A stretch of 64,000 nucleotides of DNA from Gammaproteobacteria bacterium (GTDB lineage: Bacteria > Pseudomonadota > Gammaproteobacteria > JAJFKG01): NCBI GenBank assembly GCA_021156325.1, contig JAJNDI010000001.1, positions 30,816-94,815 of the forward strand, in the 5' to 3' direction. Positions 24,001 through 30,000 of this stretch are shown here, one piece after another. The stretch's first letter is position 1, and every line of letters starts with the position of its first letter. A program made the position numbers.

Positions 24001-27000
24001 ATTGCTTGCTCACAGCGCATCATCAGGATGATCAAGCGGAAACTTTTTTATTGCAATTATGCCGCGGGGCTGGCGTGAAAGGGTTAGCAGCCATGCCTGT
24101 GATGGCAGCTTTTTCAGAAGGTTATCTTGCGCGGCCTTTATTGTTTTGCTCTAGAAAGGAGATCGTGGATTATGCAAAACAACATCAATTAACGTGGATT
24201 GACGATGATACGAATGCCGACCCTGAGTTTGATCGAAATTTTATTCGTCATCATATTATTCCCGTATTAGAAAATCACTGGCCGTCTGTAACCAAAACTA
24301 TTGCCCGTGCCGCATCGCATTGTGCTAACAGCAGTGATTTAAATCACGTCTTAGGCGAGATAGATTTGGCTGCGGCCAGCGGCAATGGTTTTTATCACTT
24401 ATCTTTGGATGTGTTGAAAGGTTTCTCGCAAGCAAGGCAAGCCAACTTGCTCCGTACATGGTTTCATAGTATCAATTTCCCAACTCCTTCTGCTGCTCAA
24501 TTAGAGTGTATTTTAGCAGAGGTTTGTTTTGCTGATGAAAAGGCAAATCCGGTATTTTATTTTTCAAATGATGCCTCAGGCAGGCAATTGCGCCGTTATC
24601 AAAATCACTTATATGCGATAAAGGTTCTGCCAAAATCGTTAGATCCAGATTGGAAAATGACGTGGGATTTGCGCACATCGCTATTATTACCTAATGGCCT
24701 TGGCACTTTATCGGCTGAGATTGTCAAGGATAGTGACTATGATTTATTGCTTCCTGAAGATGCTAAATTAGAAATGAAAACGTATAACGGTCATCTTCGC
24801 TTCCATCCCAAAGAAAGAGCCCATTCACAGACACTGAAAAATCTTTGTCAGGAATGGAAAATACCCCCATGGGAGAGGGCGTCTCTCCTAATCCTGCAGT
24901 GGAAGGAAACAGCAGTTGCAGTATTTCATCCTGCTCTAAAATGCCGTTATTTTACTAAAACACCTGCATTAAAGGCCGACAATAAAAAACTAAAATGTTG
25001 GCTTATCAATTTTATGGCGGCCGACCTTTAATATTTCAGTAGTACACTGTAAAGTTATTTAAGGCGACACTGGCCGCGTCAGTAAATTAACTTTACAGCG
25101 TAGCAGAGCACGCCTTTTGGCTACGGGGTGATAGTGCTTTCATTTATTTGTTGGTTTTCACTGAACTGGCTTGTATCTGTATCAGGCAAGAAGGGGATCT
25201 GATGCAGGGGAGAGCCTAATTGTCGTGAAAGCGCTGCAAAACTAGCAGTTTCTTCGCTGCTGATGTTACTATCGGATGCAGATTGGATGAGCGCTAAACT
25301 TGCCATTAGTAAATCTATTTCTTTCTGGGAAGCTGCAATTTGTTGCGCTATTATAATATTATTTATTAATGACTCGATATTAGCCTGCGCGCGAAGGAAT
25401 CGATTAGCTACATCTAATTCCTCAAAATTACCCGTTTTTTGAGCATTTTCTAGTATGTTGCTTATTTCAGTTGAAATGATTGTTCTTAGGCAAGATAAAT
25501 ATTCGATAACAGGCATTTCTAGGGAATGCAGGTTCTTCAACTCGTCAGGAGGAACGGCACTTAAGGTAAGATATATCCTCTGAGACTTGTCATCCATCGG
25601 GACAACATACCCTAAATGATTCGGGCTTATTATTATTTCAGTAAAGCCTTCTTCCGATTGACGAAATCGTTTTTCATTATTTCTTAATATCTGAAGCGAG
25701 TAGCCAAATAATTCTTCATCTTGTAATTGAACGTAATCCTCTGTTAGTCTTGCAGAGTGATGACCATAGCATTGGTTGATTGTAGAAATTCCTGCTTGCT
25801 CTTGCTGTATATAGCGCTGAATATAATAGGCCAATTGAGTTGAAATGGTTTCACTAAGATTGCAGCCAGCATTACGTAACATGAACGTATTATCACTTAA
25901 TGGATAGACTGGAAATAGACAAATAACATCTTCTTTGAGTGCTGCATAAGTGGGGTCAATGAGATGAATAAGGGTGCCTGCTCCGTTACGATTACGATAT
26001 CCTCGATAGTAACTATTTTCATTTAACAATAAGTTTTCCAGATCTTGAGGGGAAATTAAAAATTCGTATTTAATCAGCTCAGGGGCATTGGCAGGAACCG
26101 TTTTTTTAAAGTATACATTTTCCCCTAAAGAAGGGATTTGGTGTTTCTGACACAGATAGGGGAAAATCTCCAAAAACTTATCGAAATTTTCAATATCTTC
26201 TGTATTAGATAAATGACATTTTATCGCAATATAAAAAGCAGGCTGCTGGATATAGGCAAAAGGATAACCTTCTAAATTATGGATCCCTTTTCGGATTGCC
26301 GTTGTCAAAGAAGCTATTATAGTACTCGAAATAGCATTATTAGTGTCGCGTATTTTGGAGGTTTGATGATGAACATTGTTGCCTAACATACTGTAACCTT
26401 CTTAAATTTTTGAATATAAATAGTGGGAACTTAATAAAGTGAACGTATTGTACAAAATTTATCCATAAATAGCAACTCTTCTCTGGGTGTTAAAGGCTGG
26501 CAAAATAGTATTGATGAGTTTTTTCTTTCTCTTTAAAGACAAGAGGTTATTATCGTGATCGGTTATTTTAAATGATTTATACAACAATAGTGCTGAAGCA
26601 TGAGTGGGAGAGTGGATTGTTGCGAAAAAGCCTGGCTTTTAGAGTCTACAGATTAAATCAGCAGATAAAAACCATATTAATCAAACAGTTATAGACAACC
26701 ACTGCAAATGTTTACAAAATAGCCAAAATCCGTATAATTTTTGTCCATTTTAGAGAAAACAAAATTCTCGTTTGATGCCTGCAAGTGCAGCGCCACAATA
26801 GGCAGTTGAGACAACGGTACCGATAGCCTCTTTGTGCAATAGCCATAGTAGCCCGGCGCTGTTTACCTCAGTTGATTTAACACCAAAGCTCGAAAGTCCG
26901 GAGGGTGCTCAACAAACAAGTTGTTTATCTGAAGAGGTTATTTTGAGCGAGGGTTCGAAAACAGACTAAGTGCCCATTGAGAAAATTCCTCCTCCCTATT

Positions 27001-30000
27001 ACAATAAAAAATAAGCAGCCTTAAGAAAAAGGGTTGGGGATAATTTATTAAAGGGGACCTTTTCTTGACAACTCCAGCACTTAAGTCCTGTGATTTGGAC
27101 AAATTCAAGCCAACAGGCGTGTCAAGCCGTACCCGCTTTATCTTTGTGACTGGCGGCGTTGTCTCCTCTCTCGGTAAAGGGATTGCAACCGCTTCTCTGG
27201 GGGCTATCCTCGAAGCCCGCGGTTTAAAATTAAGCCTGATTAAATTAGATCCTTATATCAATGTTGACCCCGGTACCATGAGCCCCTTTCAACATGGGGA
27301 AGTCTATGTTACTGAAGATGGTGCAGAAACTGATCTAGACCTTGGCCATTATGAGCGCTTCACCCGGGCGGCTATCAGTAAAAGCAGCAACTTTACGACC
27401 GGGCGTATTTACGCCAATGTGATCCACAAAGAACGCCGCGGGGATTATTTGGGCGGCACTGTACAAGTAATTCCCCATATCACCGATGAAATCAAACACT
27501 GTATCTTTGAAGGTTCCACCGGCGCTGATATTGCTTTAGTGGAAATCGGCGGTACGGTAGGGGACATTGAATCCCTTCCATTTTTGGAAGCCATTCGTCA
27601 ATTGAGAATGGAATTGGGCGCTGCCCGTACATTGTTTATACATTTAACACTCGTGCCTCATTTACGTACTGCAGGGGAAACCAAAACCAAACCCACGCAG
27701 CATTCTGTTAAAGAATTGCAGCAAATTGGTATTCAGCCAGATATATTGATTTGCCGATCAGAAAATCCTCTGCCGCAGCCTGAACGGGCTAAAATCGCGT
27801 TGTTTACCAACGTGGCAGAACGGGCTGTGATTTCATTAGAAGACGTTGATTGTATTTATACGATCCCTGGCAAATTACAGGCCCAAGAGCTGGATTCCAT
27901 TGTCCTGGAAAAATTAGGGATGGATCTGGCGCCGGCCTCTTTATCGGATTGGCAGCAGGTAATTGAAGCTTATCGTCATCCTAAACAGGCAGTCACTATT
28001 TTAATGATAGGTAAATACACCAATTTAACGGATGCTTATAAATCATTATCAGAAGCATTAATTCATGCCGGTATTCATACGCAAACCAAAGTGCATATCG
28101 TTTATCTCGATGCGGAAGAAGTAGAGCGCCGCGGTATTACAGCAATTACCTCACAACCGCACGATGCTATTTTAGTTCCCGGCGGTTTTGGTGAGCGGGG
28201 TATTGAAGGCATGATCATGGCGGCGCAATATGCGCGTGAAAATAATGTGCCTTATCTGGGAATTTGTTTAGGCTTACAAATTGCAGTCATTGAATTTGCA
28301 CGCCACAAAGCCGGTATGAATAAGGCCAACAGCACTGAGTTTGATCAGGATACTCCTTATCCTGTAGTTGCTTTAGTCACTGAATGGGTCGATGCCAACA
28401 CAGGGCATGTACAAACCCGTAGTAAGAAATCGCACAAAGGCGGTTCGATGCGTTTAGGAGCACAGCCCTCAAATTTGGTTGCCGGTACTCTTGCCCGATC
28501 TGTTTATGATAGTGAAGCCATATGTGAACGTCACCGGCATCGTTATGAAGTTAATGATCAATTGCTGGGTGAGCTTCAGAAAGCGGGTCTTTGTGTCAGC
28601 GCTTATTCTGAAGAAGGCCACTTAGTGGAAATGATCGAAGTGCCTAATCACCCGTGGTATATCGGCTGTCAATTTCACCCGGAGTTTACATCTACTCCAC
28701 GCGACGGTCACTGTCTATTTAAGAGCTTTGTAAAAGCAGCGCTGGATTATGCTAATAGAGATAAAAAAAAAGCCGTAAATGAGACGCCTGATCTCATATC
28801 CTGAGTAAATAATGAATAGGGGTTAAGATAATGCAATTATGTGGTTATGAAGTCGGTTTAAACAAACCCTTTTTTTTAATTGCCGGGCCTTGTGTGATTG
28901 AAAATGAAGCCTTGGCCTTAGACACTGCCGGCCAATTAAAAGAAATAACCGATAAATTGGATATTCCTTTTATTTACAAATCTTCTTTTGATAAAGCCAA
29001 TCGTACATCAAATCACAGTTTTCGGGGTATAGGCCTTGAAAAAGGCTTGCAGATTTTAGAAAAAGTAAAGCAGCAGATCAAAGTGCCTGTTTTAACGGAT
29101 GTGCATGAAGACACACCGCTTGAAGAAGTTTCTACGGTAGTGGATGTATTACAAACACCTGCTTTCTTATGCCGTCAAACCAATTTTATTCATCGTGTCG
29201 CTAAACAAGGCTTGCCGGTCAATATTAAAAAAGGACAGTTTCTGGCACCCTGGGATATGCAGCATATCGTGGAAAAAGCACGCTCCGTGGGTAATGATCA
29301 GATCATGGTGTGTGAACGGGGTGCCTCTTTTGGTTATGGGAATTTAGTATCGGATATGCGATCACTTGCTATCATGCGAAATTGCGATTGTCCTGTGGTT
29401 TTTGATGCAACGCATTCTGTACAAATGCCAGGCGCAATATCGGGTAAAACCGGCGGACAGCGTGAATTTGTGCCTGTGTTGGCACGGGCTGCCATAGCGG
29501 TTGGGATCAGCGGAATTTTTATGGAAACGCATCCTAACCCGGATAAAGCGCCGAGCGATGGACCGAATATGTGGCCATTGGATCAAATAAAAGCTTTGTT
29601 AACCACCCTCAAAATGTTAGACGAAACTATAAAGAAACAGGGTTTTAAAAATACATTATAAACTTATTTTCTCCCCCTTTGAAAAAGGGGGAAGCCGCGT
29701 AGCCGCAGGGGGATTTACTCATAATGCTCAATATCAAAAAAATTATTGCCCGCGAAATTTTAGATTCTCGCGGCAATCCTACGGTTGAAGCGGATGTTAT
29801 TTTAACAGACGGTGCTTTAGGCCGTGCTTGTGCGCCTTCAGGTGCTTCTACCGGCAGCCGTGAAGCCTTGGAATTACGAGACAATGACAAGCAACGGTAT
29901 GGGGGCAAAGGGGTTCAACAAGCTGTTGCCAATATTCATACTATTATCGAGAAAAAAGCCTGTTCTTCGCACTATGAGACGCAGCGCGATTTTGATCACC

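Follow-up and report, generated by a model that had tools for sequence, protein, structure and literature searches.

A distal promoter-like site and a possible long leader ahead of pyrG in an uncultured gammaproteobacterium

The pyrG locus of an uncultured gammaproteobacterium raised the question of whether a strong promoter-like sequence, placed far ahead of the gene, opens a regulatory leader, an independent RNA or nothing of function. The locus was analyzed in a stretch of DNA of 64 kb (the window) from a metagenome-assembled genome named 'Gammaproteobacteria bacterium', whose cytidine triphosphate (CTP) synthase PyrG has the accession MCD6055095.1 and is nearest to Legionellales/Coxiellaceae-type sequences by protein comparison. 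The pyrG gene (27065-28804, + strand), recognized from its translation, is the first gene of a pyrG-kdsA-eno-ftsB operon. It is separated by an intergenic region of 675 nucleotides (nt) at 26390-27064 from an orphan gene of 422 amino acids (aa) at 25121-26389 (- strand), which is divergent from pyrG and stands between tilS and pyrG. Two promoter-like sites, P1 and P2, and the non-coding stretch between them were evaluated. The results suggested, tentatively, that P1 may be a distal promoter supplying pyrG with a long, unstructured and recently acquired leader. In this account, the stretch itself is no conserved riboswitch, no attenuator and no stable RNA.

The initial annotation had described a TTTACA-N16-TATAAT promoter directed at pyrG, and this sequence, P1, was found at 26711-26738 (+). 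It agreed with the sigma-70 consensus at 11 of 12 positions, had hexamers of the TTGACA/TATAAT type with a spacer in the range of 16-18 nt, and its expected start site was predicted at about 26743-26747. With a perfect TATAAT, a -35 hexamer of five matches in six and a spacer of 16 nt, a site normally functions as a sigma-70 promoter. Across the two strands of the window, sites with at least 11 of 12 consensus positions were detected twice, as P1 and at 38973-39001, and both were intergenic and oriented toward a downstream gene. In a first-order Markov simulation, a mean of 1.7 such sites per window arose by chance, while for the + strand of the 675-nt region ahead of pyrG alone the probability of such a site was 0.9%. 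At the level of 9 of 12 positions, the promoter-like counts of the window equalled the shuffled expectation. The other 11/12 site, TTGCCA-N17-TATAAT (+), was located 116 nt upstream of tRNA-Arg(TCT) (39118-39194), which would be an unusually long tRNA leader if this site is the promoter of that gene.

A second promoter-like site, P2 (TTGAGA-N17-TACAAT, 26977-27005, +), which was absent from the initial annotation, agreed with the consensus at 10 of 12 positions and had a predicted 5' untranslated region (UTR) of about 52 nt. P1 and P2 were on the same strand, 266 nt apart, and both pointed toward pyrG-kdsA-eno. Since the upstream gene is divergent, pyrG needs a promoter of its own. P2 was found in the same zone as a promoter-like motif shared by the nearest relatives, with an ambiguous exact alignment register, and because of this position P1 would be unnecessary for pyrG expression.

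The non-coding stretch from P1 to P2 (26745-26976, +), which, with an active P1, would form the distal portion of a long leader of pyrG, had a GC content of 45-49%, compared to 28-38% in the flanking 100-nt windows (26350-26749 and 26950-27099) and 43% in the coding DNA of the window. The GC-richer blocks pointed out by the initial annotation were real but not unusual, as 8 of the 12 other intergenic regions of at least 200 nt also contained 170 nt with a GC content of 49% or more, which made the block ahead of pyrG an ordinary one. It had also been stated that no open reading frame (ORF) follows P1 for about 320 nt, and indeed the longest + strand ORFs from P1 to pyrG encoded 22 aa and 45 aa, both with a TTG start and without a Shine-Dalgarno sequence. 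In codon-usage scoring, all six frames of the stretch fell below the coding range, the best with a score of -0.06 compared to 0.30 ± 0.11 for real genes. The Pfam search of its stop-free frames gave no match, the 55-aa open frame had zero homologues among 1.84 billion representative proteins (phmmer), and tblastx of the stretch was negative both with every fetched locus and with the remainder of the window.

The same annotation had considered the blocks to be potentially structured, and this found no support in folding. The minimum free energy (MFE) z-scores were -0.9 (+) and -0.2 (-) for 26745-27070, and -0.9 (+) and +0.2 (-) for 26775-26965, not below shuffled sequence in either case. Sliding windows of 100 nt on the + strand gave z-scores from -1.2 to +1.4, none of them significant, and just weak A-U hairpins of 4-5 base pairs were seen in manual reading of the leader. 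Intrinsic terminator-like sites numbered zero on both strands of 26300-27200, and canonical terminators were present elsewhere in the window, for example at 41990-42005. The C/G ratio along the stretch was about 1, with no C-rich, G-poor, rut-like region for Rho loading. Within the window, no part of the region occurred a second time.

The Rfam check that had been suggested for the region recovered neither a known leader nor any other family. With Rfam 15 at the gathering threshold, the whole window was searched and no match was obtained in the region, and at E ≤ 10 on 26380-27120 the only matches were to a microRNA (18 bits) and a small nucleolar RNA (17 bits), both far below threshold. ARAGORN predicted no tRNA or transfer-messenger RNA (tmRNA) in the region. 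The stretch is not ribonuclease P (RNase P) RNA, 6S RNA, tmRNA, signal recognition particle RNA, a riboswitch or a known leader. The sequence gaaagtccggagggtgc (26892-26908, +) resembled the core of conserved region I (CR-I) of RNase P RNA. The initial annotation had called this likeness coincidental, with the other rnpB conserved regions absent, and our analysis agreed. The resemblance to bacterial RNase P RNA (RF00010/RF00011) consisted of one exact 10-mer, GAAAGUCCGG, whereas no covariance-model match was obtained at E ≤ 10 and the rest of the CR-I to CR-V / P4 pseudoknot architecture was absent here. The exact 10-mer GAAAGTCCGG occurred a single time in the window, and the 20-mer around the CR-I-like motif was matched in metagenomes only inside an ORF of a high-GC organism. 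The likeness is a chance match.

No species-level relative was found in the collections searched, and the PyrG cluster at 90% identity consisted of this organism's own two records. A scan of genome contigs with PyrG returned only relatives of at most 68% identity, and the protein database contained two closer lineages with PyrG identities of 78% (locus L082, on a contig of 2.45 Mb) and 77% (L083 and L095). The nearest lineages keep pyrG-kdsA-eno-ftsB, an order seen in L081, L082 and L095, but their upstream neighbours differ. Upstream of pyrG, the window has the orphan gene, L082 an unrelated gene in divergent orientation, and L095 a Lum_binding gene. Since each of the three related lineages has a different neighbour on this side, the 5' boundary of pyrG is regarded as a rearrangement point. 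The pyrG upstream regions of the nearest lineages, about 200-440 nt long, had no similarity to 26745-26976. L082, L083 and L095 shared the promoter-like motif ATTGT[TG]AAAAT..GC[AG]G.GCTG.TA[AG]AATAGG, situated 30-80 nt ahead of pyrG. The 5' edge of the operon also appeared as a recurrent rearrangement breakpoint in these loci (L082, 1-471; L095, 1489-2505). In several more distant relatives, the nearest ORF upstream of pyrG was 10-94 nt away (470-490 aa in L013 and L023), and for this reason the orphan gene together with the long intergenic region is taken as a derived insertion.

Searches with the stretch itself gave no homologue. The metagenome 20-mer scan returned no DNA homologue beyond the high-GC ORF match, two viral k-mer scans returned no match or seed-only matches, distant plasmid blastn returned short chance matches only, and the DNA ahead of the orphan gene's Legionella homologues was unrelated to the stretch. 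As no homologue was found in any searched collection, there is no conservation evidence for the stretch. The reading of the stretch as a regulatory or structured RNA is unsupported, with no RNA family, no excess folding stability, no conservation and no Firmicute attenuator features.

The only variation seen in the stretch came from JGI sample 3300042904, in which two contigs overlap at 26787-26957. Contig Ga0456370_0029280 equalled the window over 23227-26957 except at two sites, the single nucleotide polymorphisms (SNPs) C26913G and T26954C (26913-26954, +), and contig Ga0456370_0000446 began at 26787, 126 nt ahead of the first SNP. A repeat at 26787-26957 was considered and rejected, as the identical part was 126 nt long (k-1 for k = 127) and stopped exactly at the SNP. 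The overlap was therefore attributed to a strain fork in the k = 127 assembly graph. One and the same population in this sample was assembled into separate contigs, with breaks inside accA (23227) and inside the pyrG upstream region. The two SNPs indicate that strains co-exist. Both broke pairs of the predicted MFE fold without compensation, which is weak evidence against a constrained structure.

Based on these observations, a distal promoter with a long, unstructured leader is the account that we tentatively favour. P1 would fire as a distal sigma-70 promoter and its transcript would read through P2 into pyrG-kdsA-eno, so that the operon would have tandem promoters, P1 with a leader of about 320 nt and P2 with one of about 52 nt. 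P2 would be the ancestral promoter, and the roughly 230 nt between P1 and P2 may be young, lineage-specific DNA left by the rearrangement that placed the orphan gene between tilS and pyrG. The initial annotation had offered either a regulatory leader or an independent small RNA (sRNA). If P1 fires, a long leader is the likelier outcome, because no intrinsic terminator occurs between P1 and pyrG, but the regulatory part of that proposal is unsupported, with no Rfam match, fold signal or homologue. The arrangement is like the tandem sigma-70 promoters and long 5' UTRs of housekeeping operons in the spacing and common strand of P1 and P2 and in the lack of a terminator between them. It differs in that P1 and P2 are putative promoters, and in that the segment between them, which the nearest relatives lack, contains no regulatory feature that could be recognised.

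Several points weigh against this favoured account. The two 11/12 sites found window-wide are at chance level, and AT-rich, horizontally acquired DNA carries spurious promoter-like sequences. P2 alone would suffice for pyrG, and Rho could shorten an untranslated leader of 320 nt even without a clear rut signature. In a different account, judged nearly as likely as the favoured one, P1 is a chance match in AT-rich DNA that is silent or gives background transcription only, P2 by itself drives pyrG, and 26745-26976 is a functionless spacer left by insertion or rearrangement. The simulated number of sites at both consensus levels, the position of P2 within the zone of the relatives' shared motif, a block without structure, homologue or coding signal, and two SNPs within 42 nt in a co-occurring strain, both breaking predicted pairs, are all in line with such a spacer. 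Against it stand the intergenic, gene-facing position of both 11/12 sites, which is rare under random placement, the low probability calculated for this region and strand, and the usual activity of a site composed like P1. An independent lineage-specific sRNA of about 200-260 nt, driven by P1, ended before P2 by Rho or processing and acting in trans or on the orphan gene, was judged unlikely. A strong P1 followed by an ORF-free stretch, a block GC-richer than its immediate flanks and the adjoining effector-like, putatively horizontally acquired gene would suit it. However, the promoter comes with no defined 3' end, since neither an intrinsic terminator nor a rut-like C>G region is present. In addition, folding was no better than shuffles globally or locally, Rfam gave no match, the stretch occurred once in the window and had no homologue beside the Legionella counterparts of the orphan gene, and the two strain SNPs disrupt predicted helices. 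It is highly improbable that the block is a decayed protein gene or encodes a small protein, for example the 45-aa ORF with TTG start at 26832-26969. Its GC content is near the coding average and one + frame stays open for 55 codons with the least negative codon-usage score, but that score lies about 3 standard deviations below real genes (0.30, standard deviation 0.11), and the missing Shine-Dalgarno sequence, the lack of a Pfam match in the stop-free frames, the phmmer result for the 55-aa frame and the negative tblastx all speak against it.

Nucleotide-sensing control of pyrG through the leader was considered as well, either by a CTP-sensitive attenuator of the Bacillus type or by uridine triphosphate (UTP)-sensitive start switching as in pyrBI/codBA/upp of E. 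coli, and very little probability was given to it. In Bacillus subtilis and Streptococcus, the pyrG leader acts by CTP-sensitive reiterative transcription and attenuation, according to the work of Meng, Turnbough and Switzer (2004) as relayed in PMC4448216 and PMC12709180, and the B. subtilis mechanism requires an initially transcribed region of GGG (then C) and an intrinsic terminator in the leader (PMC4448216, PMC12709180). The likeness to this system is a non-coding leader upstream of the same gene. Here, in contrast, P1 was followed by TTTTGTCCATTTT and P2 by AAAAAATAAGC, with no G-tract start at either, no GGG start, intrinsic terminator or antiterminator logic was found, and the host is a gammaproteobacterium. 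The likeness to the UTP-sensitive reiterative initiation of E. coli is a T-run near the expected P1 start. The sequence ATTTT occupies 26747-26751, 9 nt after the P1 -10 element, and a start at A26747 would resemble the AUUUU-type reiterative sites (PMC12709180). However, an A 9 nt after the -10 element is beyond the usual start, no leader peptide or attenuator is present, and the logic does not fit pyrG, as repression of this gene by high UTP would make little metabolic sense. The close relatives are without the leader, which also counts against nucleotide sensing.

A run of CCUCCUCCC (26988-26996) would allow pairing with G-rich RNA. When the long transcript was folded, the MFE structure paired the segment 26978-26992 with the Shine-Dalgarno sequence and start codon of pyrG (27053-27067), and the probability that GGGG is unpaired fell from 0.5 to 0.01. 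Masking of the Shine-Dalgarno sequence was nevertheless rejected as a candidate, as complementarity of equal strength was reached by 25% of the shuffled leaders and by 4 of 39 genes other than pyrG, and this pairing was discounted as evidence because it is no better than chance. A lineage-specific regulatory role for the P1 transcript was considered rather improbable. Such a transcript would be either an orphan sRNA acquired with the Legionella-like gene, or a leader in which the Shine-Dalgarno sequence and start codon of pyrG are masked by the CCUCCUCCC/UUGAGAAAA segment (26978-26992), so that the mRNAs from P1 and P2 would be translated differently.

To return to the distal promoter with a long leader, an active P1 would be a small example of how the insertion of a foreign gene beside a core operon adds an upstream promoter and a long leader, and it would be of local annotation interest for an uncultured Legionellales-like gammaproteobacterium. 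P1 and its leader bear on no open question and give no pointer to a new RNA class or mechanism.

The orphan protein had four homologues only, with 36-37% identity, and both of the source-named ones were Legionella hypothetical proteins. No Pfam domain was detected in it, and the gene may be of effector type and horizontally acquired. Upstream of this gene comes the non-coding stretch. A candidate promoter for the orphan gene, TTGCTA-N17-TACAAT, was located at 26447-26475 (-), 58 nt ahead of its start codon (ATG, 26389), and agreed weakly with the consensus (9/12).

The start of pyrG was assigned to TTG 27065 by direct sequence reading, with the Shine-Dalgarno sequence AAAGGGGA just upstream, the two together occupying 27050-27067 (+). 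The NCBI call for the product, 579 aa, agrees with this start, and the likeness of the N-terminus LTTPA to VLSTP in the relative L083 supports it. The gene callers differ at this point, with 569 aa from 27095 in the JGI call and 579 aa from 27065 in the NCBI call. The homologues of pyrG carried the Pfam domains CTP_synth_N and GATase. In this clade, PyrG has an N-terminal extension of about 18-26 residues ahead of the conserved FIFVTGGV motif, with TTG or GTG starts (window 27065-27130; L082, 472-540; L083, 205-250).

Upstream of the orphan gene and pyrG, the + strand of the window contains dnaE (18928-22446), labelled from its 1172-aa length and position only, and accA (22443-23390) and tilS (23652-25031), both confirmed by Pfam. 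The gap between accA and tilS (23391-23651) is GC-rich, 52-59% compared to 43% for the genome, and contains an imperfect palindrome of about 70 nt at 23437-23511, with CACGGTGATGG...CCATTCACCGTG around GTCCCGAAGC/GCTTCGGGAG. This palindrome occurred once in the window and matched no Rfam family. A second GC hairpin was found in the same gap at 23561-23606, and the MFE was -80.9 kcal/mol for 206 nt. An 18-nt inverted repeat at 25043-25102, 89% complementary with a 24-nt loop, stands between tilS and the orphan gene, which are convergent, and looks like a bidirectional terminator.

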